Source: Candidatus Pacearchaeota archaeon (GTDB lineage Archaea; Nanobdellota; Nanobdellia; UBA10117; JAFCGA01). From it: a stretch of DNA of 64,000 nucleotides. The position numbers and the translations under genes are program-made. Shown here piece by piece: positions 5,064 through 19,837 of the stretch; within the stretch, counting starts at the first letter, position 1; every line of letters begins with the position of its first letter. Location: the NCBI GenBank assembly GCA_017608345.1, contig JAFCGA010000002.1, forward strand, positions 1,396 through 65,395, written 5' to 3'. The notes beneath the pieces are model-generated. The model made no database searches. It had not been told where the DNA came from and saw only the letters and a program-made list of their open reading frames with translations.

Positions 5064-6214
5064 TGAAAGTAGTACTTATTGCTAATTCTGATCTAGGAAA
5101 ACACGGAAATATCGGCTTTAGAACGTTCACGGTTGCTAAGGAAGCTTACAAACGAGGTTACTTGGATAGGATTATTGTTCGCGGGAACAAGCAGAATATA
5201 ATTCCAAAGAAGTATATTAGATATTTATTTCCGGGGCATAGAGTTATTAATTTAATGATAAATTTTTTAAGTATATATACGCTCCCTAAGGTTGAGGGGT
5301 TCTTCAACGCTCTTAATATAAACTTATTTGATGCGTTTTGTAAGAGAAGGATTAAGAACTGTAGTATTTTACATATTTATGCTGATTGTAAGAAAACAAT
5401 TAGACGGTCTCATAAGTTGGGTAATATAACAATTTATGATTCTCAAATGGCTCATTATGCAGAAGCCCCATCGAATAAAGCTAGGAAGGAGCTAGTTGCT
5501 AAAGAAGTTTATGATATAATTAAATACGCAGATTATATTGTATGTTCTTCTGACTTTGTGACTGAAACTTATCTTAAGCACAAGGTACCTAGAGAGAAAT
5601 TAATAAGCTTACCCTTTGGAGTAGATCTAGATAAATTTACTAATCTCAAGAAAAAAAACGAGAAGGTTTTTAGGTGTTTATATGTTGGTGTTCTCTCTAA
5701 AAGAAAAGGGATTGAATATTTATTAAATGCATGGGAGCAATTGAATTTAAATAATTCAGAATTGGTATTTTGTGGTAGGTGGGAATCAAATATCCGAAAT
5801 TTGCTTAATAAATATCGAAATAGTAAAACAATAAAATTTAAGGGATTTGTTAATCCGGTTGAAGAATACCAAAAAGCAGATATATTTGTTTTCCCTTCCT
5901 TATTTGAGAGTTCCGCAAAAGCACAGTATGAAGCTATGGCTTCGGGTTTACCGATAATAACTACTACTAATGCGGGCGCACCATTTAAAAATAAATCCGC
6001 AGGATTTATTGTCCCAATAAGAAACTCAAATGCAATAGCCGAGAAAATACGAATTCTGTATGAAGATAAGCGTCTGCGTGATAGAATGGGTCAGAAGGGG
6101 CGAGAAATAGCTGAAACTTTATCCTGGGAGAACTATGGGAAGAGAATGAATGATATTTATGAAAAGATAAAGATTTCAGGATCGAAAGCCTTTAAAAGAA
6201 GTGGTAGTAACTGA
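5060..6214 (+). CDS. glycosyltransferase family 4
   Basis: GVDLDKF, YVG...RKG, FVFPSLFE...EAMASGLPII. Confidence 0.9.
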   Translation: MMKVVLIANSDLGKHGNIGFRTFTVAKEAYKRGYLDRIIVRGNKQNIIPKKYIRYLFPGHRVINLMINFLSIYTLPKVEGFFNALNINLFDAFCKRRIKNCSILHIYADCKKTIRRSHKLGNITIYDSQMAHYAEAPSNKARKELVAKEVYDIIKYADYIVCSSDFVTETYLKHKVPREKLISLPFGVDLDKFTNLKKKNEKVFRCLYVGVLSKRKGIEYLLNAWEQLNLNNSELVFCGRWESNIRNLLNKYRNSKTIKFKGFVNPVEEYQKADIFVFPSLFESSAKAQYEAMASGLPIITTTNAGAPFKNKSAGFIVPIRNSNAIAEKIRILYEDKRLRDRMGQKGREIAETLSWENYGKRMNDIYEKIKISGSKAFKRSGSN

Positions 6215-6235
6215 TCTGAATAAATTTAATATAAA

Positions 6236-7147
6236 ATGTCTAATTCTTTGAAAAATAAAAGTTCTGAAAGTAAGATTGTGCGTGGTAATATCGCTCGTAG
6301 CCCAATAGTGGAATTTTTAAGATTATTACCCAATAAACTCTTAACAAAGTTTGGATATAAAGTAAGCACACTTATTAATCGAATATCTGTAGAAGATTAC
6401 ATTAGCTTATACGGTAAAAAAGCTGTTGATGAAAGAAGATTTTATAATATCGGTTCTGGAACATTTAGGCATATTGCCTGGACAAACATTGATCATAAGA
6501 CCGATTGGTATAAAGATAATGTTGTAGATATTGATGTTGATTTATTGGCAAATAAGCCCATTCCACTCGAAAATTCTTCGGCTTATGCGATTTATACCGC
6601 CCATACGATTGAGCACATAACCGATAAGAGTGCAGAAAATATGTTTAGTGAGGTTTATCGGATACTGAAAAAGAAGGGTTATTTTAGAGTTGTAGTTCCA
6701 GATATAGACCTAACTTATCGAGCATATAAAGAAAGTGACAAATATTATTTCTACTGGAGAAATGAGCCGGGGTGGAAAGGTGTATCTATTCCTCAGTTAT
6801 TTTTAGCTTTCTTCGCTAGTCAAACATCTATGAGTCCAATGAATAAGAATATTAATACCAAGAAAATTACTGATGCTGAACTAGCGCGAATATTCAAAGA
6901 AAAAGCTTATGAAGATGCTCTGAATTATTGTTGTTCTTTTTGTAAGGTAGCTATCCAAAAAATAAGAGCAGGTGATCATATGAATTGGTGGAATGAAAAG
7001 AAGCTTATCTCTAAGCTAAAGAGAGCTGGGTTTAAAAGCGTATACAAGTCCGGATATGGCCAAAGTTTTTGTCCAATACTCACAGATACAAACTATTTTG
7101 ATAACACTAAGCCAAGAATTAGTTTGCATATTGAGGCGAGAAAATGA
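6236..7147 (+). CDS. class I SAM-dependent methyltransferase
   Basis: NIGSG, HTIEH, RILKKKGYFRVVVPD. Confidence 0.75.
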   Translation: MSNSLKNKSSESKIVRGNIARSPIVEFLRLLPNKLLTKFGYKVSTLINRISVEDYISLYGKKAVDERRFYNIGSGTFRHIAWTNIDHKTDWYKDNVVDIDVDLLANKPIPLENSSAYAIYTAHTIEHITDKSAENMFSEVYRILKKKGYFRVVVPDIDLTYRAYKESDKYYFYWRNEPGWKGVSIPQLFLAFFASQTSMSPMNKNINTKKITDAELARIFKEKAYEDALNYCCSFCKVAIQKIRAGDHMNWWNEKKLISKLKRAGFKSVYKSGYGQSFCPILTDTNYFDNTKPRISLHIEARK

Positions 7148-7179: not shown

Positions 7180-8466
7180 GTGCAAGTCTGCGATTTAGGC
7201 GGTGAGCCAACAGGCGGAAACCTAACTGAGTTGAGATATACTATGCAAAAACCCTACGGGAAGGATATTATCTTGGAGAAATGCCAGTCTGCGAGTGCGA
7301 GAAGTACTTTAGCTGTACGTATAGGGGAAAAAATGAAAGAATCAGCGAGATGGAGTAAAATAATACCTATCAAAGCAAAAAGCCAACAGAAAGAGGTATG
7401 GCAGTACAACAGTTCGGAAGGGACAGAGAATTATAACGTTGATGTTAGGCTTGGAAAGCCGTTAGATTTTCTAGCGTTTAAATCTAAACGGATGGGAGCG
7501 TTCAAAGCAGACCTATTAGCTATAAGTAAATCTAGGAAAGATGTATTTAAAAACAAGAAGAACTTAGAGCACGTAAAGTTCTGTCCAGTTTGCGGATACG
7601 ATACTGAGTCTTCTATCGAAGCAGTTAATATATATAATGCTATATATAGACAATGCTCTAATTGCGCACATTATTTTGTAGTTAATAGACCATCACCATC
7701 TTTCTTGGAATCATTCTATTCCGAAGATGAACAATATCAAGGTCCATATACAGATAAGAATGAAATAAACATTAGGGTTTTGAACATAGTCGCTCCTAAG
7801 CTAGATTGGGTAATTAAGCAATTCAAAAGAGTTTATGGAAGAGAACCAAAGTCAATCTTAGACGTAGGTACAGGAAGCGGTCATTTTGTTCATCTATGCC
7901 GGGAAAGAGGATTAAAAGCTGATGGCGTGGAATTAAGCAAGACAGGTATAGAATTCTGCAAGAATAACTTTAACATAGAACTGTTCAACGTGGATTTCAT
8001 ATCGGAATGGTCTAAGTTCCGTGATTATGATATTATATGCTTCTGGGGAGTTCTTGAACACGTACCATATCCCTGTGAGTTATTGAGCGCAGCTTCGATG
8101 GCTCTATCTGGGAAGGAAGGGCTAGTCATTGCTGAAGTGCCAAGATGGGATTCCATTAGCACAGCCGTTCAAGAAGTGTTTTCAGATTCCATCACTAGAC
8201 ACCTTGATCCATTAGGACACATAAGCTGTTTTACAGATACATCCTTAGCTACACTCTTTAGAGATAGCGGATTTGATATTACTGCAGCATGGTATTTTGG
8301 GATGGATGCCTATGAATGGAGTATTCAACTATCAAATCTATTTGGTAAAAATAAAGTAAACAAGAAGATGAAAGAGCTAATGCCTATATTTCAGCAGACT
8401 CTAGACAAAGCCAAGTTATCTGATGAAGTAGTTATAGTCGGAAAGCCTTCGGAGAAAGCAGAATGA
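7180..8466 (+). CDS. class I SAM methyltransferase with Zn-ribbon (start probably ATG 7243 or 7273)
   Basis: CPVC/CSNC, LDVGTGSG, VLEHVP. Confidence 0.8.
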   Translation: MQVCDLGGEPTGGNLTELRYTMQKPYGKDIILEKCQSASARSTLAVRIGEKMKESARWSKIIPIKAKSQQKEVWQYNSSEGTENYNVDVRLGKPLDFLAFKSKRMGAFKADLLAISKSRKDVFKNKKNLEHVKFCPVCGYDTESSIEAVNIYNAIYRQCSNCAHYFVVNRPSPSFLESFYSEDEQYQGPYTDKNEINIRVLNIVAPKLDWVIKQFKRVYGREPKSILDVGTGSGHFVHLCRERGLKADGVELSKTGIEFCKNNFNIELFNVDFISEWSKFRDYDIICFWGVLEHVPYPCELLSAASMALSGKEGLVIAEVPRWDSISTAVQEVFSDSITRHLDPLGHISCFTDTSLATLFRDSGFDITAAWYFGMDAYEWSIQLSNLFGKNKVNKKMKELMPIFQQTLDKAKLSDEVVIVGKPSEKAE

Positions 8467-8512
8467 AACCAGAGCCACTAAATGATAAAGAACTATCTGT
8501 TATTAAAACATC

Positions 8513-10024
8513 TTAAATTTTGATTTCATCGCGCCGTATTAATCGGATCAGCTCGTTATAATCAATAACTTTCCATAGTATCCCAATTAATAAATATATT
8601 GCTCCTACGATCAAGCTAATTATTATCATTTTAACATAAACTTGCAGATAAATAATTTTCAGTAAGAAGTATACTCCAAAAAAGAGGAACACGTTTAGAA
8701 TTATAATTTTCCACCAGTTTTTATAAGCGATAGCATAGTTTCGATGTATAATAAGCAAACTTAATATAAACATGATCAGGAAACAGAAACTTGTAGCTAA
8801 GGCTGCTCCGATTATTCCTAAATCGAATAACTTAATTCCGAATAACTGTTTTGGGATAAGTATTGTATTAAGTATTATATTTAAGATTACACCAATGTAA
8901 ACTATAAGTGCTACTTTCTTAACTTTACCCAGACCTTGAAGCGTAGCGAAGTTAATTAATGTAAAGCTCTTAAAAAAGAAACCAATGATTAGTATCTTTA
9001 ACGCCATTGATGCTAAAATAAATTCTTTCCCGAAGGCTAAGGATAAGATATCTTGCGCAAAAAAAAGAAAGATTATCGTCAGCGGGAGGACTAAAAAGAG
9101 ACCTAAGTTATAAATTGCTTTTAGTATTGTGGATATCATTTTTTTATCCCCCAAATGTTTCAATTTAGAAATTGTTGGAAATAGATATGATCTTAAGGGG
9201 GTCATGAATAGCAAAGTAAGTGAAGCTGCAGGTAAAGCAGCTTCGTATAAACCAACCATTTTAACTCCTTTGAAAATAGTTAGCATAAATACATCTATCC
9301 TACTTAAGATAAAAAAAGCAGTCGCACTAAGAAAAACCATAGAAGCATATTTACTTATTGGCTTGAAGTAACTCTCTTTTGTTTTAGCGCTTCTAAAGAC
9401 TAATGGGTAATTGATTATCGCTAGTGCAGAATAAATAGCAGATATGATCAAATAACTTACAACCCAGATTATTGAAAATGCTATTAATAAATTCTCCTTA
9501 AAAAAAACGAGAGCGATCGAAGAAGCAATCAGAACAAGTACCAATCGGATAGGGTTCATTGAGGCATAGAATCTTTCATTATTAACGCCTATAAAAAAAT
9601 ATACTATAATCTTGTAGGATATATTAAATAAGAACAGTAGCGTAAAGAGTGGAATAATCAGTATCGCTGCAGATGTATGAAAATATTGACTTGCTAGGAA
9701 GTTCTTAAGTAAGAGAATTATAGATATAATAATTACTGATAACAGGAGATGTATTAGAAATACTTGAATAACAGACCGCTTTATTAGAGAATATTTTTCG
9801 CTGTGAAAGAGCTTAGGTATGTAATGCGCAAGACTACTTCCTAATCCAAGATCTATAAATATGCTAATAAGCGCTACGAAATTAATCATAGCATAAAACA
9901 GACCATAATCTTCAACCCCCAATGTCCTCGAAAAGAGAATTCTTAATAGGAACGTAAATGGCATAACTAGCAATTCAAAAGCCGCAACAGTAAGTAAACC
10001 TTTAAATAATCGTTTCTTGTCCAT
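8513..10024 (-). CDS. oligosaccharide flippase (Wzx/MOP family)
   Basis: About 14 hydrophobic segments, R.LG.EDYG, DLGL, RID..ML, VGLY, GIIGAALAT. Confidence 0.9.
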   Translation of the reverse strand: MDKKRLFKGLLTVAAFELLVMPFTFLLRILFSRTLGVEDYGLFYAMINFVALISIFIDLGLGSSLAHYIPKLFHSEKYSLIKRSVIQVFLIHLLLSVIIISIILLLKNFLASQYFHTSAAILIIPLFTLLFLFNISYKIIVYFFIGVNNERFYASMNPIRLVLVLIASSIALVFFKENLLIAFSIIWVVSYLIISAIYSALAIINYPLVFRSAKTKESYFKPISKYASMVFLSATAFFILSRIDVFMLTIFKGVKMVGLYEAALPAASLTLLFMTPLRSYLFPTISKLKHLGDKKMISTILKAIYNLGLFLVLPLTIIFLFFAQDILSLAFGKEFILASMALKILIIGFFFKSFTLINFATLQGLGKVKKVALIVYIGVILNIILNTILIPKQLFGIKLFDLGIIGAALATSFCFLIMFILSLLIIHRNYAIAYKNWWKIIILNVFLFFGVYFLLKIIYLQVYVKMIIISLIVGAIYLLIGILWKVIDYNELIRLIRRDEIKI

Positions 10025-10028
10025 TTTA

Positions 10029-11333
10029 TTAGAAAAGACGATTCTTATTAATTACGTCTTTAATTATGGTTTTTATTTTATCCTCTTCGGTCTCCTTGAA
10101 TTTATTTAGTAATTTGGCTTTGAGGTATTTAATATGCTCCTGATAATTTTTGTTTTTGATTAAATTATCTTTTTCTAACTCGTTTCTCTTTAGTTCATAA
10201 AACTCTTCTTGGAAGTTACTTAGTATTAATTTGTAGTTCTTTAATCTTGCACCAATCAGGTGATTTTTCTTATCAATTGTTTCAAAGTATATAATTTCGC
10301 CCTTTCTTTTAAAAATCGATCTCCCCTCCCAGTCGTCTGGCGGTTCTATACCTAATAATGCTAGAATAGTTGGGGAAACGTCAATTAGAGAAACTAGCTT
10401 ATGAGTGTTAGTCTTTTTATTAACGTTTAAAAAAATTAAAGGAACTCTCAGATTAATGTCATATAACTTAGAACAGTGTCCAAAATCGCCATACTCGTAA
10501 AATTCTTCACCATGATCTGACGTAATGATCAAGAGCGTATTTTTGTAAATCTTAATTTCTCGAAGAAAACAAACTAATTTTTTGATTTGATCATCTAAGT
10601 AATTAATTTCGGCATCATACAGTTTGATAAGATCTTTCACTTCATATTTAGTAAGTGGCTTATCTATTCTAGTCTTATCTAGTTTATAGTTTAATTCGTG
10701 CATTCGACTTCTAGAGATATTTGAGAATTTCTTTCTATGTCTCTTATCTGGTAGAAAAGGAGCATGTACATCCATATAATGTAACCAAAGAAAGAATTTT
10801 TTATCTTTATTCTTTTTTATCCAGTCTATAGCATCAGATGTTTGCTTTTCTCCTAGGGTCCAAGGAATACTTTTGTTTACGGTAAGGTGCGAATAAATAC
10901 GGATGATTAAGTCATAGATCTTCTTACCTTCTAGCATTTTAGCTATTTTATCTTTAATATTTCTTCGAGTTGTGCGATATTTTTTAAAAGTCAAATAATC
11001 TTCAAAAAAATCAAAACCTTTGTTATAACCATAGTGCCGAGAAACGAAAGGATTTGAATGTATCGCTGCAGTTCTGTATCCGTTATCCTTTAATACTTCT
11101 GAGATCAATAACATATTTTTACTTAGAAAACTGGCGTCCTTATTTTTAGCAGCGTAATTTGCTGCTAATATCGAAATAAACGAACATATAGTCCCTGGAG
11201 CGTTTGAGAAAGCGTTAGTAAATCGAAGACCGTTTAGGCTATCCATAAACGGAGTTGTTTTCTTCTCGTAACCGTAACAACTGAGATGATCTGCTCTCAG
11301 AGAATCAATCGTTATAAGAATTACGTTCTTCAT
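10029..11333 (-). CDS. sulfatase-fold (alkaline phosphatase superfamily) protein
   Basis: NVILITIDSLRADH, HYMDVHAP, YDAEI...D, TSDHGEEF..GH; Thr at nucleophile position. Confidence 0.85.
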   Translation of the reverse strand: MKNVILITIDSLRADHLSCYGYEKKTTPFMDSLNGLRFTNAFSNAPGTICSFISILAANYAAKNKDASFLSKNMLLISEVLKDNGYRTAAIHSNPFVSRHYGYNKGFDFFEDYLTFKKYRTTRRNIKDKIAKMLEGKKIYDLIIRIYSHLTVNKSIPWTLGEKQTSDAIDWIKKNKDKKFFLWLHYMDVHAPFLPDKRHRKKFSNISRSRMHELNYKLDKTRIDKPLTKYEVKDLIKLYDAEINYLDDQIKKLVCFLREIKIYKNTLLIITSDHGEEFYEYGDFGHCSKLYDINLRVPLIFLNVNKKTNTHKLVSLIDVSPTILALLGIEPPDDWEGRSIFKRKGEIIYFETIDKKNHLIGARLKNYKLILSNFQEEFYELKRNELEKDNLIKNKNYQEHIKYLKAKLLNKFKETEEDKIKTIIKDVINKNRLF

Positions 11334-11621
11334 TTTATTTGTTTAGGAAAGTTAATGTAAGTCTCCGACTTGATTTGGTCTTATTTCGTTTCTTTCTCAC
11401 CGTTTTTTATAAGTACTGGGAGTAATTGCTTATTTGTAATCATCAAGTTTTCGTTCATTCTTATTTTAAAGTGTTTTGGAATTATGTTCGCTCATCGAAC
11501 GTTTCATTATATCTTCTCGCAATCGGAAGATTGGGCTGTCTTTTTTACTTTTTCGCAGAGGGTTGTTCTGATAGATTAATAATATGCTGAATTATAGTAT
11601 TTATATTCTCACAATAAGTCA

Positions 11622-12320
11622 TTAATAATCTGAAAGTTCTTCCGCCTTTTTTAAGTCTTCTGGAAAATCGATATCAACAAAGAGCACGTTCTTTCCAATA
11701 TCATACGCAGATACTACCTCACCTCGTTTAATAAGTCTGGAGAGTGATTCAATCAACGTGCTATTAATCGTCTGCTTTGACATATTCTCTAACGCCGCAA
11801 TTAATTTTTTAGCTCCCCGATCAGAAAGCTTTGCAATCCCGATAAACTCACCGTTTTCCCCAAACATATGCTCCTTACTAATCTCTACAATAACTCCTTC
11901 CGTTTCAACAACTTTTTCAGCCTCTTCTCTAAATCCATCTTTTTTTATAGCCAGACAAATATCTCCTTCTTGTTTCAATAAATTATCAACGATCTTTGAA
12001 TCAAATAAAATATCCGAGTAGAGAAAGATAAATCCTTCTCGCAGCTCTTCTTTTGCAATCCAAAGCGCCATACTCATATTTGATACTGCATAGAAAGGAT
12101 TAAACACTCCTTTAATTTTCAAAATGTTACACTGTGTCTGAACTTTATCGGCAAGATATCCCGTAATAACTACAATCTCTTTTATTCCTGCGGCGCGTAA
12201 AAATTCTACTTGATGCTCAAGGATTGTTTTACTTCCAACTTTAAGCAAGCACTGTGGAGTATCTTTTGTTAAAGGTAATAATCTTGTTGCTTTTCTTGAG
12301 GCAAGTATAATTGCTTTCAT
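11622..12320 (-). CDS. LicC/PntC-like NTP (cytidylyl) transferase
   Basis: MKAIILA..ATRL.P.T...PQCLL, NPFY..SN, YSDILF, GEFIGI, DIDFPEDL. Confidence 0.8.
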   Translation of the reverse strand: MKAIILASRKATRLLPLTKDTPQCLLKVGSKTILEHQVEFLRAAGIKEIVVITGYLADKVQTQCNILKIKGVFNPFYAVSNMSMALWIAKEELREGFIFLYSDILFDSKIVDNLLKQEGDICLAIKKDGFREEAEKVVETEGVIVEISKEHMFGENGEFIGIAKLSDRGAKKLIAALENMSKQTINSTLIESLSRLIKRGEVVSAYDIGKNVLFVDIDFPEDLKKAEELSDY

Positions 12321-12425
12321 TGTAAATCGTTGGTCAAATCGCATAAATAGATTTGCAATTCCAAAAATCTACTTAATCGATTTTTGGTTATATTAATCTT
12401 GTATGATTATAAGATTTAAATTTGA

Positions 12426-13229
12426 TTAGTCTACAGACTCTATTCTGATGAGTTTTTTTCTTATGTATGCGCTGAGTCTATCAATTCCAACAACCATTAG
12501 CACCATTATGATTAAGATCGTTAAGACTTCTCTGTTCTTAAAGAGACGCATACTAGTTAATAATTCCATTCCAATTCCGCCTGCACCAACCAGTCCTAAT
12601 ACCGTAGCTGCTCTGAAATTATTTTCAAGATAATAAAGGAAATAATTAGCGAACAAAGGTTTTACTTGGGGAAAAATACCTCGTGCAATAACTTGAATCT
12701 TAGTTGCGCCCGTTGAAATAATTGCTTTTATTTGTTCAGGATCTACTGTTTCAATTGCTTCAGAGAAATATCTTCCTAGCGCACCGGTAACATGTGCTGC
12801 AAGAGCCAGAATTCCTGGAAAAGGACCTAATCCAACCATTGCAACAAATATCAAACCCCATACAATTTCATTTATTCCTCTGCACGCATCGAAAAAAGTT
12901 CTTACACTATGATAAATAAATTTGTTCGGCATGATATTTCTCGCAGCTAGGAAAGACAAAGGCAGGGCAATAAGTGCTCCAATTCCAGAACCAACAATCG
13001 CCATCTGTAAGGTTTCAACTGTTTTCAAAAGAAACCTGCCCAGGTGCGTTATATCTGGAGGAAACATTCGTCTTACAAAATCAATCATATATGGAATTCC
13101 TTTAACGAAGGTAGTAGGACTTGCACCTGTTCCGCTAATTGCCCAATAATATATTATAACAATAAGGAGACCGAGGAGTAAACTCTTGTACTTTTTTCTT
13201 AAGCCGCGTAATATTTTTTTTAATCGCAT
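12426..13229 (-). CDS. phnE: phosphonate ABC transporter permease
   Basis: MFPPD, ETLQMA, GLGPFPG.LAL, SEAIE loop, R.ATVLGLVGAGGIG. Confidence 0.92.
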   Translation of the reverse strand: MRLKKILRGLRKKYKSLLLGLLIVIIYYWAISGTGASPTTFVKGIPYMIDFVRRMFPPDITHLGRFLLKTVETLQMAIVGSGIGALIALPLSFLAARNIMPNKFIYHSVRTFFDACRGINEIVWGLIFVAMVGLGPFPGILALAAHVTGALGRYFSEAIETVDPEQIKAIISTGATKIQVIARGIFPQVKPLFANYFLYYLENNFRAATVLGLVGAGGIGMELLTSMRLFKNREVLTILIIMVLMVVGIDRLSAYIRKKLIRIESVD

Positions 13230-13230
13230 A

Positions 13231-14004
13231 TTAGAATCCAGTTTTACCGTACATATACCAATCTCTAGTCGCGCCATAAATATCTACAATGTCTTTTTCA
13301 GTAAGCTCCTTCGGTGTACCGTCGAATACGATTTCTCCATCTCGTACGCCTATGATTCTTGAACCATATTTTTTAGCAAAATCAAGAAAATGTAAGCTAG
13401 TAACTAATGTAATCTTTTTTTCAGTACAAATTTTCTTTAGCAGATCCATGACTTCTTTCATCAGCTTGGGATCTAAACTCGATACAGGTTCATCCGCTAG
13501 GATTATGCTTGGCTTTTGTGATAGTGCTCGAGCAATTGCAACTCTTTGCTTCTGGCCGCCACTAAGATTAGCAATTCTCTCATTTTCATACTCTTGCAAT
13601 CCTACTCTTGCAATATTTTCTCTTGCAATCAAATAATCTTCTCTGGAGAACCGACCCAACAACGTGTTGAATGCGCTATTATATTTTAGACGTCCATTTA
13701 ATACATTCTTCATTACTGTTTCACGCTCAAGAAGATTGAAATTCTGAAAAATCATCCCAATCTTGCCCCTTATCCGTGCAGCTTTCTTAAGAGAACAATT
13801 CAGTATTTCTTCATTCTGGATGAGGATTTTACCGGACTCCGGCTCGATTAATCGATTAATGCATTTAAGGAGCGTTGATTTGCCAGAACCACTAGATCCG
13901 ATGATTACTACACTTTCTCCTTTTTTTATGTGCAGAGAGATGTTTTTAACTGCTGCATCCTCGCGGTTTTTGTAAGTATGGCTGAGGTTTTTTATTTTTA
14001 TCAT
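13231..14004 (-). CDS. phnC: phosphonate ABC transporter ATP-binding protein
   Basis: GSSGSGKST, NVLNGRL, LSGGQKQRVAIARAL, ADEPVSSLDP, SLH. Confidence 0.92.
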   Translation of the reverse strand: MIKIKNLSHTYKNREDAAVKNISLHIKKGESVVIIGSSGSGKSTLLKCINRLIEPESGKILIQNEEILNCSLKKAARIRGKIGMIFQNFNLLERETVMKNVLNGRLKYNSAFNTLLGRFSREDYLIARENIARVGLQEYENERIANLSGGQKQRVAIARALSQKPSIILADEPVSSLDPKLMKEVMDLLKKICTEKKITLVTSLHFLDFAKKYGSRIIGVRDGEIVFDGTPKELTEKDIVDIYGATRDWYMYGKTGF

Positions 14005-14031
14005 AATAATATAAAATAAGAAAAAGAAAGA

Positions 14032-14955
14032 CTACTTATTAGCAGCCTCTGCGCTTGTTACATCCATGCCAAGTATTTTTGCAGTTTCTCTAATTACATC
14101 ATAGTCGCTATCAGAAACTTTTTGGTAGTTGGAAATCCCTCCCCATCCGTCAACTTTATGGATGGTCTGCTGGTCCATTTCAACCAAAATAGTCTGTATC
14201 TTTTGTTTTAGTTCTGCAGGCAGGTCTCCTCTTACAACTATTGGCGATCCAGGTATCGGCTCTGATTCATGTAATATTATATTAACTTCAGGATCTATCT
14301 CACCTTCTTTAATCATTCGAGCATATACATTGTCTCCACTCGCGCCCGCGTCGACCTTGCCATTTGCAATAGCGTATTGAACTGCGTTATGGGTTCCTGC
14401 GTAGTAACTAGTGCTAAAGTCATTGTCCGGATCTATTTCATTTTCAAGCAACATCTTTCTAGGAATAAGGTTTCCTGACGTTGAGGCAGGATCTACAAAA
14501 GCAAAGGTTTTTCCTTTTAGATCTTCTAGCGTCTCAATCCCACTGTCTGCATTCACGATAATCAATGATTTATATGTTGCACTACCTGTGCTTTCTTTTA
14601 CGCCATTAACAATTGCTTCTGCATTTGCAACATTAGCTGCAATAACATATGAAAATGGTCCAAACCACGCCATGTCAATATGTTTTGCTCGCATTGCTTC
14701 AATCGCAGCAGTATAATCAGATGTAACTTGTATCTCAACGGGAATTCCTAACTTTTCAGATAAGTATTCCTTAACGGGTTCATAATTTCTTAGCATCTCG
14801 TCAGCGTCATCCGCAGGAATTAATCCCATACGCAAGACGGTAATTTCTTCTTCATTAACATCTGTTCCACTAGTAAATTTATTTAGGCCAAAGTTTACTA
14901 GTATAAATGCTAATAGTAAAAGAAAGCCAATTTTCCAAATATTCAATCGTTTCAT
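14032..14955 (-). CDS. phnD: phosphate/phosphite/phosphonate ABC substrate-binding protein
   Basis: N-terminal anchor, DY.AAIEAM, GPFSY, FVDPASTSG.LIP, GTH, IPGSP. Confidence 0.92.
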   Translation of the reverse strand: MKRLNIWKIGFLLLLAFILVNFGLNKFTSGTDVNEEEITVLRMGLIPADDADEMLRNYEPVKEYLSEKLGIPVEIQVTSDYTAAIEAMRAKHIDMAWFGPFSYVIAANVANAEAIVNGVKESTGSATYKSLIIVNADSGIETLEDLKGKTFAFVDPASTSGNLIPRKMLLENEIDPDNDFSTSYYAGTHNAVQYAIANGKVDAGASGDNVYARMIKEGEIDPEVNIILHESEPIPGSPIVVRGDLPAELKQKIQTILVEMDQQTIHKVDGWGGISNYQKVSDSDYDVIRETAKILGMDVTSAEAANK

Positions 14956-15728
14956 TTCATTACCTTTATCCGTCGGTTAATCAGTAACTTGATTCCGAGA
15001 GTATCAGTATCTATCTTATTTATTTGATTGATAAAAACATCTTTAGCGAATTTATATTCTTCAGGGAAATCGATTTCCATCCAATCTTCTCCTGACACAA
15101 GCTCATATTTTACTGCTATTCCACTTTCTGCTATAATTGTGATTAAATCCCTTACGTTCTTGAATTGTATTGCATCAGAATCTTTTAGGAATTGGATGTT
15201 TTCTTTGAATTGCTTGGAACCCTGTTTGTTCATTTTTATTATCCCAGCGAATTCTCCATTAGATTCTTCATTAGGCAATTCTTTACTACATACAATTATT
15301 TTATCATATTTAATCTTCACTTTTTCAGACTCGTCATCGACAGCCTTTTCACTAACTAAGCAAACTATATCACTTTTTTCGCTAGCAACGATTTTTTTCA
15401 AGGCCCTTTCTGAGAAGATAGAATCAGCATACATAAACAATATTTCGCTATTAAATTCATCCAAAGCAAAATATAATGAGTCCAGCATACCTTCTTGTGT
15501 ATAGAGCGGTTCTCTTAAATATCTAACAGAATCTCCAAATTTCTTTTTAATATCTTCTGATCGATATCCAACAACAAGTAAAATATCCTCAACGCCATTC
15601 TTTTTGAGAAGTCTTATTGATCTGCCTAATATAGTTTCATCTTCAATAGGTAGCAAACATTTAATGGTACCATTTGTAGACTCGCCCATCCGAAAATTCA
15701 TGCCGCCAGCCAATATTATGGCTTTCAC
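14952..15728 (-). CDS. LicC/PntC-like NTP (cytidylyl) transferase
   Basis: MKAIILAGG..FRM.....KCLL, YADS, GEFAGI, WMEIDFPEEY. Confidence 0.8.
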   Translation of the reverse strand: MKAIILAGGMNFRMGESTNGTIKCLLPIEDETILGRSIRLLKKNGVEDILLVVGYRSEDIKKKFGDSVRYLREPLYTQEGMLDSLYFALDEFNSEILFMYADSIFSERALKKIVASEKSDIVCLVSEKAVDDESEKVKIKYDKIIVCSKELPNEESNGEFAGIIKMNKQGSKQFKENIQFLKDSDAIQFKNVRDLITIIAESGIAVKYELVSGEDWMEIDFPEEYKFAKDVFINQINKIDTDTLGIKLLINRRIKVMK

Positions 15729-16852
15729 CCGATTACCTCCGGGCAGATCTTAATTAATTCGCTAAACAATTTTTCAGCAATTTCTGGTTTTAATTCCACT
15801 ACGTTACAATTTTCTTCAGGATCTTTGTTTAACTCATAGAGCTCCTTTTTACCTGTTTTAATATTATATATCAACTTCCAATCATTTGTTCTGACTGCTT
15901 TTAATAAAGGTTTTTTCTTTGTTGGATATGGTTTAACTAATCCAGCTCCTTCTGAAAAAGCTATTCTGCTATCTGATTCATGATCCATTAATTTCATTAA
16001 AGATTTTCCTTGGGGTTTTATATATCCTGCACTAATCGGTATACGCAGGATATCTAGAATTGTTGGTAGGATATCAATCGTTCTACCCATCTTTTCGATA
16101 TTTCTAAAAGGAAATATTTCTGGCTGAACAAAGAGCGAGAAAGTTCTTAAGGTGTAATCATAACAATAACGCCCATATCCTATCTCTCCGATTTTATCGC
16201 CAACGCTAGCTCCATGATCTGACATAATAAGGATAATTGTATCCTTAAACAAATTCAATTCTTCACAAGTTTCGAATATCTTACCTAGATACTCATCACT
16301 TTGTTTTATATATTTATCATAATTCTCAAGGTTCTTATCTTTATTTTTGAAATAGTTTTTATCAAAATCATCATACTTTTTTAGAACTGTCTCCACCAAT
16401 CCAGTATGTATATTACTATAATGTAAATATAAGAAGAAATTACCTTTCTTTTTAGCATCCTTTATCATTTTTCGATGTCTATCTGCCAGATTATCTCTTT
16501 TCTCATCGTGAATTGATAATTTGTCAAATCCTTGCTTGGGAACAACAATCTCGTTTATCGTATCGCCAAATGTGTTAAAACCAGCTTCTTTAAGGTATTG
16601 TGCAAGGGTCTTGCAAGACTCTTTTCTAAATAATGCACTACCAAAATAGTTGTAAGCGCCATTAATGTTCCCATAAATTCCAGTAAAACTAGCATGCATT
16701 GACGTAACTGTTTGAGTACCATACGTTATAATTTTTGAGAAGAGTGTCCCTTTTTGGGCCCACATCTGGAAATTCTTTTGATCCTTGATACGATCATACC
16801 TAGCACCATCCACTACAATTAAAAGTACGTTGTATTTACTTTTTCTTGTCAT
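15725..16852 (-). CDS. sulfatase-fold (alkaline phosphatase superfamily) protein
   Basis: NVLLIVVDGARYD, T..S....TG, SDHG, DILPTILD, ELYEL..DP.E. Confidence 0.85.
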   Translation of the reverse strand: MTRKSKYNVLLIVVDGARYDRIKDQKNFQMWAQKGTLFSKIITYGTQTVTSMHASFTGIYGNINGAYNYFGSALFRKESCKTLAQYLKEAGFNTFGDTINEIVVPKQGFDKLSIHDEKRDNLADRHRKMIKDAKKKGNFFLYLHYSNIHTGLVETVLKKYDDFDKNYFKNKDKNLENYDKYIKQSDEYLGKIFETCEELNLFKDTIILIMSDHGASVGDKIGEIGYGRYCYDYTLRTFSLFVQPEIFPFRNIEKMGRTIDILPTILDILRIPISAGYIKPQGKSLMKLMDHESDSRIAFSEGAGLVKPYPTKKKPLLKAVRTNDWKLIYNIKTGKKELYELNKDPEENCNVVELKPEIAEKLFSELIKICPEVIG

Positions 16853-16917
16853 TAAATATAATTATATATAATTACTTTAAAAAGATTGTGAAACTTCTGC
16901 ATTATACTTAAAACAAT

Positions 16918-17130
16918 CTAAAGATAGCCTAACCTTTTTAATCTATTCTTTATCTCATTTTCCACTTTTTTATCAAGAATACCTTCATTTGGTCCAGATA
17001 AAATCTGCCTTAGGATAAAAGTGACATATGCCGAAGCGGAATGTATTCCTGTACCTTCTATATTTTGTTTAATAGCTTCGACTAAGGGTGTGGGGAGAGA
17101 AACGGTAGTAAACTTACTCTTTTTTTTCAT
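16918..17130 (-). CDS. CopG/ribbon-helix-helix protein with C-terminal LxxLGY tail
   Basis: FTTVSLP.PL...IK....GTG..S.S.YV..ILR; ends EIKNRLKRLGYL. Confidence 0.8.
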   Translation of the reverse strand: MKKKSKFTTVSLPTPLVEAIKQNIEGTGIHSASAYVTFILRQILSGPNEGILDKKVENEIKNRLKRLGYL

Positions 17131-17524
17131 TCGTATTATTATATATATTTTATCTTATTAAGCTTTCGAAAGATTACTCTTTTTATATCTAAGGATAGCT
17201 CAGAACTGTATAAAAAATACGGTTATCTAAACTATATTACTAAATATTGCAAGGAACTATAAGGTTAAATCTGCGTGCTATGCTTGCGGTTTGCAAATAC
17301 TTTCCGCCCTATAAATAGTTCTTTTTGTTATGCGGATTTATAGTCCTAACGATTTTAAACTATTTCAGAGCAATGTCTTACAGTAGAAGCAGGTCTAGGA
17401 GTTGGGGAGGGAGTAAGTACGGAGCACGGTTCCACACACAATAAACTTTATATTTGGCAAAATTATCTAGCGTAGATAACACAATCTTTTTAAAAGTTTA
17501 CTCGAGAATAACTTATTGATAATA

Positions 17525-17734
17525 ATGAAAGTGGATATAGATAAGAATATAATACGGGCGCTTCAGGAACGCGTTAATGTAAGTAAGGACTACAATAATG
17601 TTGACCAGTATATAAACTATATCTTGGAGCAGATAGTTGATAGATTTAAAGAACAAGAAGTTGAGAACGCTATTGATCCTGCTGAGCAAAAAAAGATAGA
17701 GCAGCAACTAAAACGCCTCGGATATGAGAAATGA
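17525..17734 (+). CDS. second RHH-like protein with LxxLGY tail
   Basis: MKVDID...Y.NVDQYINYILEQ; ends KIEQQLKRLGYEK. Confidence 0.7.
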   Translation: MKVDIDKNIIRALQERVNVSKDYNNVDQYINYILEQIVDRFKEQEVENAIDPAEQKKIEQQLKRLGYEK

Positions 17735-17785: not shown

Positions 17786-19837
17786 TTATTTAACACTAAA
17801 TAAGAATTCTGATTGAGTATTATACACTAGTTCGAAATTATCAGATGCACTTATTTCTTGCAATCTCTGATTCGTTAGATTCACATCAAATTTATGTTTA
17901 GCTACGCAGCTTGCGCCCAAAACTACATACTCCATCTCATTTCTTTTCAGAAATTGATAGTTATCTTCAATACTTTTATTTAGCGCTGTCCTAAAGTAAG
18001 CAGTTTCTGAGTTCTCAGATAATTCTTCATTCGCCCAAGTCATAGGATGCATATCATACCCATATAATGTAGATGGTTGATGACATAGCGGATAGACGTG
18101 AGAATCCTTAGGAATTATATCTCCATCTCTCAGTTCCACATAAAATTTCTGTGATTCTGGAATAAAGATTTGATGTTCCGGCCAGACTGCGGTGTTGTGC
18201 CAGTATTTCTGCGCGAAGGAAGTAGGGATTACTAATATAACTACTGCAATTATGAATATCGCCGTTAGGTGCTGTTTCTTGATTAGTTTGGCTAGTCCTA
18301 CAACAGCAAACCCGATTATAAGCGAAGCTGGAATTGCGAAGAACGTCCACATCCTAAATGGGAGATACATTACTGAATGATACACACCTAGAATTATAAT
18401 TAGAGAAAAGATCACCCAAATAAGCGTTGTGCTAATCCAAAAGTTTTCTTTTTCGAATAATTTCTTGTAACTTAATAGGATAAATATAATTCCTATTGTA
18501 AAAAGGCTCATCAGAATAATTCCTACTCCAATCGGATTGTTAGTCATATTCCCTTTCTGAGCAACGAAGAAATCAGCAAGAGTATATGCTCTTGTTCCGG
18601 ATCCCTTTAGGTTTATGAGTTTCTTAGACGGTAAAATCAAAATTAGAGCTACTGTACCTAAGACAATAAGGAATAGTATTTGCTTAATGTTCTTGATTTG
18701 TAATCCTCTTTTGATGTGCTTAAACCAGAATTTATTTATAGCTAATAATACTACTAGGCTCGCAATAATTACTATTGATATCCCCAAAATAAGTGGGTTA
18801 AATATTATCTTATGTATTAGTTTAAATATAAAATTAAGTCCACCAGACTGAGCTACAGGGTTAAAGAAAAGATCGCTATGTTGAATGTATATGGGAATAT
18901 AATACAGTAAAGAAAGTATAAAACCGCCGAATAATGAAAGTATAAGCTTAATGTTTAGATCTTCGTGCACAAAAATATAATTTATATAGTATATTCCAAG
19001 AAGCATTAGTATCGTAACTGCAGTATTAACATGATTTATCAGAACTGAGGCGAATACTAAAGCAAGAATATATTTCCATTTGTTATTATTCCGCATAGCC
19101 ACTAAGCAATAGAGCAAGACCGGAAATAGAGCCATATTGAAGTTTAGAGAAAACACAAAGTGCCCAACCCAGCACGGAATTGCAAACAGAGCAAAGGTTG
19201 AAACAATTGCTATATCTTCGTTCTCCGTAAATCGCTTGGCAAAGTAATAGAAAAACAATAAGGATAAAGAGATAATTAGTGCATTAAAGAACTTCATTGT
19301 CCAGTATATAGAATCATTAGTCTGATGCAGAACGCCCATTAAGATTTGATAGCCTTGTGTGTATGGCTCAGCGTAGTGAGAGTATTGAAATGGCGTTGAG
19401 AAAGTCTTTTCTTCTGCAATGTATTTGGAAGCAAGAGAATAACCATAAGGGTCACCATCTTCTAGCCAAGGATATACAAAAGATCCATGAATATACATAT
19501 AAGCAGTTACAGCAAACATTATCAAAAGCAAGATAGAATATATTTGCTGTTTAGTTATTTTAGAAAAACTGAACTTAGGAAAGGACAAAACTTCTTTTTT
19601 TCTAAAATAGGCTGCTGCTGAAAAGATTGTGATCGCAATAATTAAATATATTTTCCAATCTAAAGGAATATGCAATAGATTAAGAATTACTCCGAGAAAT
19701 GTAAATATTGCTATACCAATTCCTAGCCGCATAACTAATTTTTCTAAGAAATCCGCTTTCCAGTCTTTTATAATGAGATCAGTTAAGAATCCAAGACCAA
19801 TTGTTACAATTAAGAAATATATTACGCTAGTCCACAT
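17786..19837 (-). CDS. polytopic membrane protein, probable GT-C fold glycosyltransferase
   Basis: Many TM segments, acidic WLEDGDP loop followed by PY..GY, soluble C-terminal domain. Confidence 0.6.
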   Translation of the reverse strand: MWTSVIYFLIVTIGLGFLTDLIIKDWKADFLEKLVMRLGIGIAIFTFLGVILNLLHIPLDWKIYLIIAITIFSAAAYFRKKEVLSFPKFSFSKITKQQIYSILLLIMFAVTAYMYIHGSFVYPWLEDGDPYGYSLASKYIAEEKTFSTPFQYSHYAEPYTQGYQILMGVLHQTNDSIYWTMKFFNALIISLSLLFFYYFAKRFTENEDIAIVSTFALFAIPCWVGHFVFSLNFNMALFPVLLYCLVAMRNNNKWKYILALVFASVLINHVNTAVTILMLLGIYYINYIFVHEDLNIKLILSLFGGFILSLLYYIPIYIQHSDLFFNPVAQSGGLNFIFKLIHKIIFNPLILGISIVIIASLVVLLAINKFWFKHIKRGLQIKNIKQILFLIVLGTVALILILPSKKLINLKGSGTRAYTLADFFVAQKGNMTNNPIGVGIILMSLFTIGIIFILLSYKKLFEKENFWISTTLIWVIFSLIIILGVYHSVMYLPFRMWTFFAIPASLIIGFAVVGLAKLIKKQHLTAIFIIAVVILVIPTSFAQKYWHNTAVWPEHQIFIPESQKFYVELRDGDIIPKDSHVYPLCHQPSTLYGYDMHPMTWANEELSENSETAYFRTALNKSIEDNYQFLKRNEMEYVVLGASCVAKHKFDVNLTNQRLQEISASDNFELVYNTQSEFLFSVK

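Follow-up and report, generated by a model that had tools for sequence, protein, structure and literature searches.

The 64,000-nucleotide (nt) stretch of DNA analyzed here, referred to as the window (contig JAFCGA010000002.1), contains a run of nine genes which, as deduced from its sequence and from comparison with related loci, probably encodes a phosphonate salvage-and-decoration module in the surface-glycan locus of a small-genome archaeon. All nine genes are located on the minus strand, from position 17130 to 8513. The run is headed by a gene encoding a small protein of 70 amino acids (aa), a putative ribbon-helix-helix (RHH) regulator (16918..17130; no Pfam or NCBIfam match), followed by genes encoding Sulf1, a sulfatase-fold protein of the alkaline-phosphatase superfamily predicted to be cytoplasmic (15725..16852; PF00884, 2e-28), and NT1, a LicC/PntC-type nucleotidyltransferase and predicted cytidine triphosphate (CTP):phosphonate cytidylyltransferase (14952..15728; PF12804 (NTP_transf_3), 2.6e-15). 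The next genes encode an ATP-binding cassette (ABC) importer consisting of the substrate-binding protein PhnD, equipped with an N-terminal hydrophobic anchor (14032..14955; TIGR03431), the ATPase PhnC (13231..14004; TIGR02315) and the permease PhnE (12426..13277; TIGR01097). Applying the curated NCBIfam equivalog cut-offs, each subunit scored above its threshold (279.9 vs. 261.1 bits for PhnD, 319.8 vs. 266.1 bits for PhnC and 294.2 vs. 216.7 bits for PhnE), which places the importer in the PhnCDE phosphonate ABC importer family (TCDB 3.A.1.9). Downstream thereof, NT2, a second LicC-like nucleotidyltransferase (11622..12344; PF00483 (NTP_transferase) and PF12804 (NTP_transf_3)), Sulf2, a second sulfatase-fold enzyme with predicted cytoplasmic location (10029..11333; PF00884, 1.9e-47), and a Wzx/MOP-type flippase as the last gene product of the run (8513..10024; PF01943 (Polysacc_synt), 2.4e-21, and PF13440) are encoded. 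The flippase is strongly hydrophobic (maximum Kyte-Doolittle 19-residue mean of 3.16), which fits a multi-span membrane protein.

The nine co-oriented open reading frames (ORFs) described in the original prediction, which had been made from the sequence alone, were all recovered at their coordinates. Overlapping stop and start codons, likewise part of that description, were found at the Sulf1/NT1 and NT1/PhnD junctions (4 nt each, the GTG start codon of NT1 overlapping the TGA stop codon of Sulf1); the PhnC and PhnE genes overlap as well, and NT2 and Sulf2 are separated by a gap of 288 nt.

The run belongs to an approximately 35-kb glycosylation island (about 1.2–36 kb of the window), which encodes glycosyltransferases, sugar-modifying enzymes, methyltransferases and two B12-binding radical S-adenosylmethionine (SAM) proteins. 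The G+C content of the island (0.30–0.37 for window positions 1–36000) is lower than that of the contigs of the genome (0.36–0.40), and PhnD was not found among the 40 nearest relatives searched. Both findings fit a laterally acquired, variable surface locus. The corresponding genome comprises 1.05 Mb on 15 contigs and is 88% complete; its 40 nearest relatives have sizes of 0.3–1.2 Mb. The window encodes a PCNA, and the closest versions of the module among named records originate from metagenome-assembled genomes (MAGs) labelled ‘Candidatus Woesearchaeota’ or ‘Nanoarchaeota’, from which we infer that the host is a small-genome, DPANN-type, Woesearchaeota-like archaeon. An aspartyl-tRNA synthetase (AspRS) containing a GAD domain, a domain typical of bacterial-type AspRS, is encoded at 54526–56247 (-). 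Immediately upstream of the module, the minus strand encodes (17786–19837) a polytopic membrane protein of 683 aa that matches EpsG and DUF2079 weakly and may represent a glycan polymerase or GT-C-type transferase; a homolog with 29% identity is located at L038:18815–19999 (handles beginning with L, G and P denote loci, genomes and proteins, respectively).

Genes encoding a phosphoenolpyruvate (PEP) mutase (PepM, also termed Ppm), carbon–phosphorus (C–P) lyase, PhnW/PhnX or PtxD had been reported missing from the window, and this observation was extended to the whole genome at its completeness of 88%. PepM, Ppd, PhnJ, PhnX and PhnW gave no match, and a full PtxD-like gene was not found in the genome, the 2-hydroxyacid-dehydrogenase family of PtxD being matched only partially, in the Rossmann region of two GFO_IDH_MocA genes. 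Homologs of the PF01467 cytidylyltransferase (CT), HD-domain protein, Phosphodiest protein, major facilitator superfamily (MFS) transporter, PepM, Ppd and iron-containing alcohol dehydrogenase (Fe-ADH) encoded at related loci were also missing from this genome. A Pfam scan of 43 window ORFs detected no choline kinase (LicA) or LicD, the remainder of the genome not having been scanned for these two.

To place the module in a comparative context, genome and metagenome contigs were scanned via NT1, which yielded five loci (L002–L006), two of which (L005 and L006) were too short to judge. In L002 and L004, the gene for the 70-aa protein is followed by a gene encoding a fused Sulf1-NT1 protein and by phnD (81% and 65% identity), phnC and phnE. 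In L003, the same two genes are followed by those for a 232-aa protein and an MFS transporter at the place occupied by PhnDCE elsewhere. The best NCBIfam matches of this MFS protein are organophosphate:Pi antiporters (PgtP/GlpT, 6e-35, below the cut-offs), the family to which the 2-aminoethylphosphonate permease AepP belongs (PMC8316502). Furthermore, 400 other genomes of the phylum were searched with the fused Sulf1-NT1 protein. Any match at E <= 1e-10 was obtained in 74 of 401 genomes, mostly reflecting generic nucleotidyltransferase or sulfatase similarity, and full-length Sulf1 orthologs (E <= 1e-67, 35–47% identity) were present in nine of the 400 genomes. About 20 kb were annotated around eight of these orthologs, the ninth (G395) being used by presence/absence only. 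In a corresponding survey for PhnD, PF12974 was detected in 10/400 other genomes, and six of these proteins score at least 247 bits and are 72–85% identical to the window PhnD. Named loci of this PhnD orthogroup are the window, L002, L004, L038 and L046–L050, and counts are given per 10 loci.

A nucleotidyltransferase gene (PF12804 and/or PF01467) is located immediately upstream of phnD in all ten orthogroup loci. A PF01467 CT gene precedes phnD in L038 and L046–L050, with a PF12804 nucleotidyltransferase gene between the two in L046, L047 and L049. NT2 is encoded after phnE in six of the ten loci; its orthologs (53–60% identity) follow phnE in L038 and L046–L049, an HD-like gene intervening in L046. 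Loci L046–L050 were found through PhnD alone, and the nucleotidyltransferase adjacency in these five loci is therefore independent of the query. In contrast to the orthogroup, loci of distant PhnD homologs (L052–L055, 25–29% identity) showed a nucleotidyltransferase, CT or Sulf match in 0/4 cases. The co-location of phnD, NTP_transferase and sulfatase genes, which the original prediction had singled out for a survey across archaea, recurs in other genomes and is for this reason regarded as more than chance.

The PhnD orthogroup comprises at least 120 clusters at 68–87% identity; its named members carry the labels Woesearchaeota, Nanoarchaeota or ‘archaeon’, with a single Patescibacteria MAG as the exception. 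The latter member, P0085 (73% identity), stems from a record named Patescibacteria group bacterium and suggests exchange between DPANN archaea and bacteria of the candidate phyla radiation (CPR). PhnD, PhnC and PhnE are 72–85% identical between genomes compared with 43–45% (G213, G220, G285), 55–60% (G261) and 33% (G113) for the housekeeping AspRS, suggesting that the cassette has either spread laterally or been under very strong constraint. Further genes were observed at these loci. A protein of about 200–250 aa is encoded near the importer or cytidylyltransferase genes at L004:14044–14739, L003:7180–7878, L046:9211–9960 and L048:12686–13288; the L004 copy has a weak Pfam HD match and the other three are its homologs (tblastn). 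This HD-domain protein gave no PDB sequence match. SAM-dependent methyltransferase genes are located between phnD and phnC in two loci (L004:11745–12476 and L047:10134–10865), and methyltransferases of this type are fused to NT1 or Sulf1 homologs in P0143, P0148, P0167 and P0169, which hints at head-group methylation. In L050, a LAGLIDADG-domain ORF and a gene for ribosomal protein L11 lie between two Glyco_tran_28_C and Polysacc_synt gene pairs with identical Pfam scores (7219–9001 and 12588–14370), an arrangement that resembles an exact duplication or a repeat introduced by assembly.

A hint as to the nature of the compound that would be imported comes from a comparison of two loci. L038 (genome G213) encodes, in order, a B12-binding radical-SAM protein, a Phosphodiest protein, the 70-aa protein, Sulf1, a PF01467 CT, PhnD (84%), PhnC (78%), PhnE (82%), NT2 (60%) and a convergently transcribed flippase. 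L042 (genome G260) encodes Sulf1, a B12-binding radical-SAM protein, a CT, a CT-PEP mutase fusion, Ppd, Fe-ADH, an NT2-like protein and, again convergently, a flippase; PepM (TIGR02320, 408 vs. 319.55 bits) and Ppd (TIGR03297, 511 vs. 312.5 bits) exceed their cut-offs. Between L038 and L042, identity amounts to 43% for Sulf1, 33% for CT, 29% for NT2 and 48% for the flippase, and both flippases, encoded convergently to NT2, share 32–33% identity with that of the window (tblastn). Judged from gene content and order, PhnDCE and PepM-Ppd-FeADH are alternatives in one conserved locus frame. The PepM-Ppd-FeADH cassette constitutes a route to 2-hydroxyethylphosphonate (HEP). Since related genomes carry phosphonate-synthesis genes at the place of the importer, the archaeon appears to import a phosphonate. 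Moreover, CT-PepM, Ppd and Fe-ADH genes adjoin those for Sulf1 and a Phosphodiest protein in L044, and in L039 Sulf1 is encoded about 4 kb from a PntC-2-aminoethylphosphonate (AEP)-transaminase fusion (TIGR03301, 431.7 vs. 360.8 bits) and Ppd, close to the contig end. No phosphonate source was detected within the fetched stretches of about 20 kb representing L040, L041, L043 and L045; the contig carrying L045 (genome G268) also encodes a PepM, at a distance of about 38 kb.

At the genome level, PEP mutase (TIGR02320) matched 26 of 401 genomes at E <= 1e-20, 20 of them above the cut-off and three more slightly below it, at 315–318 bits. The window's genome (G000), G213 and G436 (genome of L002) possess PhnD without PepM, G260 and G416 possess PepM without an orthogroup PhnD, and G299 encodes both; within the 400-genome sample, PepM occurs in only one (G299) of the six genomes featuring an orthogroup PhnD. 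Either PepM or an orthogroup PhnD is present in 5/9 Sulf1-bearing genomes compared with 23/391 others (one-sided Fisher test, p = 1.2e-4, calculated on related and hence not independent genomes, with G395 included and with the G268 PepM at 316 bits, just below the cut-off).

B12-binding radical-SAM genes were observed near almost every locus, the two window copies being located at 26879–28291 (+) and 30041–31576 (-). The L042 copy adjoining Sulf1 (5271–6743) is 32% identical to the first window copy and matches the Sden_1168 ‘P-methyltransferase’ family best, with 318 bits against a cut-off of 575. Fom3-like methylation of a cytidine monophosphate (CMP)-phosphonate by these proteins might be considered as a lead.

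For both nucleotidyltransferases, the two top PDB sequence matches are LicC (1jyk; 2.4e-8 for NT1 and 1.6e-19 for NT2) and PntC-AEPT (6pd1; 8.4e-7 and 2.1e-10, respectively), i.e., a CTP:phosphocholine cytidylyltransferase and a phosphonate-specific enzyme. Together with the NTP_transf_3 domain, these nearest solved relatives assign NT1 and NT2 to the PntC/LicC family. Within a collection of 5.8 billion proteins, only four close homologs of near NT1 length were retrieved (52–62% identity), the next tier showing at most 36% identity and names such as ‘phosphocholine cytidylyltransferase family’. A search for longer relatives yielded five proteins, namely three Sulf1-NT1 fusions, encoded as single proteins in L002 (629 aa), L004 (628 aa) and L003 (644 aa), one NT1-methyltransferase fusion and P0144. 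The latter protein (690 aa) shares 60% identity with NT1 in its residues 1–244 (over 240 aa, E 2e-105) and continues with a CTP_transf_like domain and then a PEP mutase featuring the EDKxxxxxNS motif; one source names P0144 ‘phosphoenolpyruvate phosphomutase / 2-hydroxyethylphosphonate cytidylyltransferase’. A link to PEP mutase was accordingly found for the NT1 and NT2 families (P0144 fusion, L042), but not for the window's own genome. The CT encoded at the position of NT1 in L038 matches 5x3d over its full length (8.3e-14) compared with 4.4e-9 for TagD (1coz). The 160-aa PDB chain 5x3d is named ‘Phosphoenolpyruvate phosphomutase’ and is presumably the Fom1 cytidylyltransferase domain. The EDKxxxxxNS motif, described as specific for Ppm (PMC6697681), was present in 4/4 PepM proteins checked. 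The same study (Rice et al. 2019, PMC6697681) reports fusions to PF12804 and/or PF01467 domains for roughly 60% of Ppm enzymes and formation of CMP-HEP by the PF01467 domain of Fom1.

Sulf1 and Sulf2 are encoded by the only two PF00884 genes of the genome. The AlphaFold2 (AF2) model of Sulf1 (pLDDT 89.9) has S1 sulfatases as top Foldseek matches (E ~4e-23, TMq ~0.75), and the C-terminal subdomain of true sulfatases (PF16347) is present alongside PF00884. The formylglycine (FGly) motif [CS]x[PA]xR is absent from both proteins, and their classification as true sulfatases was rejected for this reason. In a profile alignment, Thr48 of Sulf1 corresponds to the FGly Cys of sulfatase 6hr5, and the Arg of the motif is replaced by non-basic residues; position 48 is Thr in eight and Ser in four of 12 orthologs, across which D15, R18, D212 and H213 are invariant. 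Judged from the alignment, Sulf1 thus matches the pattern of Thr plus Asp and Asp-His metal ligands of the EptA/MCR/LtaS type. In Sulf2, ‘APGT’ at residue 45 parallels ‘AP(Y/Q)T’ of Sulf1 and a DHG is located at residue 273, the pairwise alignment with arylsulfatase 6hhm being ambiguous around that stretch. Neither protein contains a hydrophobic segment (maximum Kyte-Doolittle 19-residue mean of 1.21 for Sulf1 and 1.57 for Sulf2) or an N-terminal extension, so that an N-terminal multi-span membrane domain of the EptA/MCR/LtaS type is missing. Both proteins, labelled as sulfatase-fold in the original prediction, are better described as candidate soluble alkaline-phosphatase-superfamily enzymes with a Thr nucleophile, unlike the membrane-anchored EptA/LtaS type. 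Given the missing motif and the Thr at the nucleophile position, they are read as candidate phosphonyl transferases instead of sulfatases.

Relatives of Sulf2 (25–31% identity) adjoin Sulf1 in L002, L004, L040, L041, L042 and L043. The Sulf1 family proper comprises about 50 clusters at 50% identity, beyond which scores drop to those of generic sulfatases, and its long members include proteins fused with a nucleotidyltransferase or a SAM methyltransferase and a single one fused with an adenosine phosphosulfate (APS) kinase. Sulf1 accompanies the de novo synthesis clusters L042, L044 and L039 and is therefore assumed to act after activation and not to free a phosphonate from an imported conjugate. 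We advance only tentatively that Sulf1 and its relatives might form a new class of soluble, cytoplasmic Thr-nucleophile transferases of the sulfatase fold, which would use a nucleotide-anhydride donor (CMP-phosphonate, APS or phosphoadenosine phosphosulfate (PAPS)) for the transfer of an anionic head-group, i.e., phosphonate or, for some members, sulfate, onto nascent surface glycans.

Among solved structures, the phosphite binders PtxB 5lv1 and 5o2j are nearest to the window PhnD (E ~8e-50). In PtxB, Tyr208 serves as a steric cap that forms a P–H...pi contact and excludes larger ligands (PMC12718374). The original prediction had named IPGSP in place of this aromatic cap, and the alignment is in agreement: ‘PQYPW’ of PtxB aligns with ‘PGSPI’ of the window protein, placing Ser at the position of Tyr. 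This Ser is found in 120/120 listed orthogroup members, and the aromatic cap distinguishing phosphite binders of the PtxB type is lacking in the window PhnD. Use of phosphite was rejected, as the Tyr cap is missing and no PtxD-like gene was found in the genome. The residues binding the phosphorus head-group in E. coli PhnD (Y47, Y93, S127, T128, S129 and H157) correspond to Y81, Y128, S158, T159, S160 and H189, all six being invariant in 120/120 listed orthogroup members. The acidic residues E177 and D205, which hold the amine of 2-AEP in E. coli PhnD (PMC12718374), are replaced by N209 and S237, conserved in 115/120 and 120/120 listed members, respectively. An invariant Asp208 adjoins N209, and a one-residue register shift could still provide a carboxylate. 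Based on the pocket residues, the PepM-Ppd-FeADH cassette replaced by the importer and the Fom1-like CT, our best guess ranks HEP first as the ligand, followed by AEP and then methylphosphonate.

Concerning the small first gene, orthologs of the 70-aa protein (37–59% identity) adjoin Sulf1 in L002, L003, L004, L038, L040 and L041. Its label as an RHH regulator was not confirmed. Four approaches gave no significant result for an RHH identity: Pfam RHH_1 was touched weakly by two of eight orthologs (best E 0.033), a PDB profile search returned no match, the AF2 model consists of three helices and no strand, and Foldseek found nothing at E <= 0.001. Five of the seven weak Foldseek rows (E >= 0.7), namely VapB, two NikR and two ParD entries, are taken here as RHH proteins. 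A second small ORF, P0021 (72 aa; 17516–17734, plus strand), is a diverged paralog of the 70-aa protein (24% identity) sharing the C-terminal ‘LKRLGY’; it is encoded on the strand opposite to that of the module, within the spacer of 650 nt preceding the latter.

Based on genome interpretation and locus comparison, the following route is proposed for the salvage-and-decoration module. PhnDCE would import a free small organophosphonate, at best guess HEP, with AEP or methylphosphonate as possible substrates. NT1 and/or NT2 would condense it with CTP to yield CMP-phosphonate. Sulf1 and Sulf2 would take over the phosphonyl group from the CMP donor via a covalent Thr intermediate (Thr48 in Sulf1) and pass it to a lipid-linked glycan at the cytoplasmic membrane face, after which the flippase would export the decorated glycan. 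Regulation of the operon is probably exerted by the small RHH-like protein. Within this route, the identity of the ligand, the use of CTP, the function of Sulf1 and Sulf2 as transferases, the acceptor and the function of the regulator are inferred. The import–activate–transfer scheme of the original prediction is supported by the comparative data, namely the nucleotidyltransferase adjacency, the exchange of importer and PepM genes, the MFS transporter of L003, the P0144 fusion and the missing catabolic and biosynthetic genes.

Several observations weigh against this interpretation. Sulf1 is encoded in only four of the ten PhnDCE loci, and four of the nine Sulf1-bearing genomes of the sample contain neither PepM nor an orthogroup PhnD. 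The Sulf1-family representative P0165 is the one fused to APS kinase, an ATP-sulfurylase and a HIT protein are encoded in L045 (413–1516 and 1513–2127) 8–9 kb from Sulf1, and a PAPS-reductase-domain gene (L040:10935–11693) adjoins Sulf1 and the gene for the 70-aa protein. Accordingly, the Sulf1 family may also handle sulfate and need not be restricted to phosphonate; in the window's genome, tblastn with the ATP-sulfurylase, APS-kinase domain and PAPS reductase of the relatives returned nothing at E <= 1e-3. Furthermore, the genome is only 88% complete, and since PstS and PiT were not found in it, PhnDCE could also serve general phosphorus nutrition. Lastly, the neutral polar residues N209 and S237 occupy positions featuring Glu/Asp in E. 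coli PhnD and Arg/Thr at the tail positions of GpxB, a member of the PhnT family specific for glycerol phosphates (PMC12718374). A hydroxylated phosphoester is therefore a possible ligand, the residue comparison with GpxB being only approximate, by equivalence through E. coli PhnD. Import of a phosphoester, such as sn-glycerol-1/3-phosphate, phosphoethanolamine or phosphocholine, by the same architecture would let the nucleotidyltransferases make a CDP-alcohol from which Sulf1/Sulf2 or other enzymes build a teichoic-acid-like or phosphocholine-like decoration. Compatible with such chemistry are the hydrogen-bonding, non-acidic tail pocket, a TagF-like CDP-glycerol glycerophosphotransferase (PF04464, 4.9e-73) encoded in L046, where Sulf1 is missing, CDP-alcohol phosphatidyltransferase genes (CDP-OH_P_transf) in L047, likewise devoid of Sulf1, and in L003, the position of LicC as top solved relative of NT1 and NT2, and the best partial PDB match of the L038 CT, an ethanolamine-phosphate cytidylyltransferase. 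The cassette replacing PhnDCE makes a phosphonate, however, an NT1 ortholog is fused to PEP mutase, and over its full length the L038 CT is closer to the Fom1 enzyme than to TagD. Neither choline kinase nor LicD was seen among the window ORFs, and the window PhnD is far nearer to PtxB than to the GpxB-like chain 9lf9 (4e-13). Phosphoester import is thus regarded as unlikely, although it retains an appreciable share of probability.

The missing PstS and PiT also bear on the possibility that PhnDCE is a plain phosphate or phosphite importer hitch-hiking in a variable glycosylation island, with nucleotidyltransferases activating sugar-1-phosphates and sulfatase-fold hydrolases unrelated to transport. 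In its favor, the case has been made for picocyanobacterial PhnD1 as a constitutive transporter of phosphate (PMC10284923), and phosphite is the ligand of the solved proteins nearest to the window PhnD. However, the 40 relatives mostly manage without PstS (0/40) and PiT (5/40 above cut-off) and yet lack PhnDCE (0/40), indicating that this importer is not the lineage's general answer to phosphorus demand; PhnDCE as a substitute for lost Pst/PiT systems was not supported on the same grounds. The replacement of the Tyr cap by Ser in all 120 listed orthogroup members and the missing PtxD-like gene argue in the same direction, and hitch-hiking leaves the nucleotidyltransferase adjacency, the PepM exchange and the fusions unexplained, so that this explanation is considered improbable. 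Even less credit is given to a new catabolic route, in which an imported phosphonate would be activated with a nucleotide, whereupon the alkaline-phosphatase-fold enzymes would cleave it and thereby supply phosphorus for growth. The alkaline-phosphatase superfamily does include phosphonoacetate hydrolase, which cleaves a C–P bond, and HD oxygenases such as PhnZ also cleave C–P bonds, an HD-domain protein recurring in L003, L004, L046 and L048. That protein has neither a homolog in the window's genome nor a PDB sequence match, though, the genes framing the module encode glycosyltransferases and a flippase, and Sulf1 and NT2 are equally present in the de novo synthesis loci L042, L044 and L039, where cleavage would amount to a futile cycle.

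Salvage and surface decoration by the module would have implications beyond this genome. The presence of phosphonate ABC importers is usually taken to indicate phosphonate catabolism or phosphorus stress. In the present case, a PhnD orthogroup of at least 120 clusters (at least 68% identity) is found in biosynthetic glycan loci of genomes with no known C–P cleavage route, which would alter the counting of such genes in metagenomic surveys. If the interpretation is correct, environmental phnD counts would partly reflect surface decoration and not phosphorus starvation. The steps following CMP-activation in phosphonyl tailoring have been called enigmatic (PMC6697681), and the Sulf1-NT1 fusion provides a concrete transferase candidate that can be expressed and assayed; the Sulf1 class would then represent the missing transferase of phosphonyl-tailoring pathways. 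Ultra-small symbiotic archaea unable to make the C–P bond would still display phosphonates by salvage, and DPANN archaea, perhaps also CPR bacteria in view of the one Patescibacteria-labelled PhnD ortholog, would wear phosphonates scavenged from the community. Phosphonylated surfaces have been proposed to protect against grazers, viruses and hydrolases (PMC8931226). In addition, the exchange of cassette and importer in one frame represents a natural experiment, since the product of the replaced cassette can help to assign the substrate of the importer.

Literature searches, with supplementary tables not covered, retrieved no description of a prokaryotic importer-fed phosphonate decoration, of DPANN loci of this kind or of Sulf-NT fusions, the nearest case being diatom lipids. 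In Phaeodactylum tricornutum (PMC9765203), use of external 2-AEP intact via CMP-phosphonate and without C–P cleavage has been proposed, as for the module; the diatom is a eukaryote relying on endocytic uptake, Kennedy-pathway enzymes and a phospholipid target, whereas the route proposed here belongs to a prokaryote and would rely on an operon of its own, on uptake by an ABC importer and on a glycan as the target. Marine pepM/mpnS neighborhoods, including that of Nitrosopumilus maritimus, also combine sulfatase-like and LicC-like genes in a polysaccharide context when compared by description, and harbor arylsulfatase-like, choline-kinase-annotated and transferase genes of hypothetical role (PMC9381506). 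These clusters make phosphonate, whereas the module described here is proposed to import it. With the PhnCDE transporter of the E. coli C–P lyase operon and with PtxABC, the module shares the transporter family and the six head-group residues of E. coli PhnD. It differs by the missing C–P lyase, phosphonatase and PtxD, by Asn/Ser in place of the Glu/Asp pair and Ser in place of the PtxB Tyr, and by neighboring genes that are biosynthetic and not catabolic. EptA/MCR-1 and LtaS resemble Sulf1 and Sulf2 in the PF00884 domain, the Thr nucleophile and the Asp and Asp-His ligands, and these membrane-bound enzymes transfer a phospho-headgroup to a surface polymer. Sulf1 and Sulf2, in contrast, lack a transmembrane domain, are predicted to be cytoplasmic, contain PF16347 and have S1 sulfatases as nearest structures; their implied donor is a nucleotide conjugate instead of a phospholipid.

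The logic of the module matches two known systems, the Pnt pathway and the lic operon. The Pnt pathway (Ppm-Ppd-AEPT/PhpC and PntC; Rice et al. 2019, PMC6697681) likewise places LicC-like PF12804 and Fom1-like PF01467 domains beside a phosphonate source in a cell-surface glycan locus, and the NT1 ortholog occurs in an NT-CT-Ppm triple fusion of the type described there. In the window's genome, without a match to PEP mutase, Ppd or the aminotransferase/reductase, an ABC importer takes their place; moreover, the host is a DPANN-type archaeon, and the PntC-like enzyme is accompanied by, or fused with, enzymes of the sulfatase fold. The lic operon encodes the permease LicB, the kinase LicA, the cytidylyltransferase LicC and the transferase LicD (PMC6697681), and follows the same order of import, CTP activation and transfer to a surface glycan, LicC being the closest solved relative of NT2. 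In place of a LicB-type permease, a phosphonate-family ABC importer is encoded here, and the sulfatase-fold proteins are the candidate transferases in a window where LicA and LicD were not seen. The module contains no kinase, which fits a substrate already carrying phosphorus.

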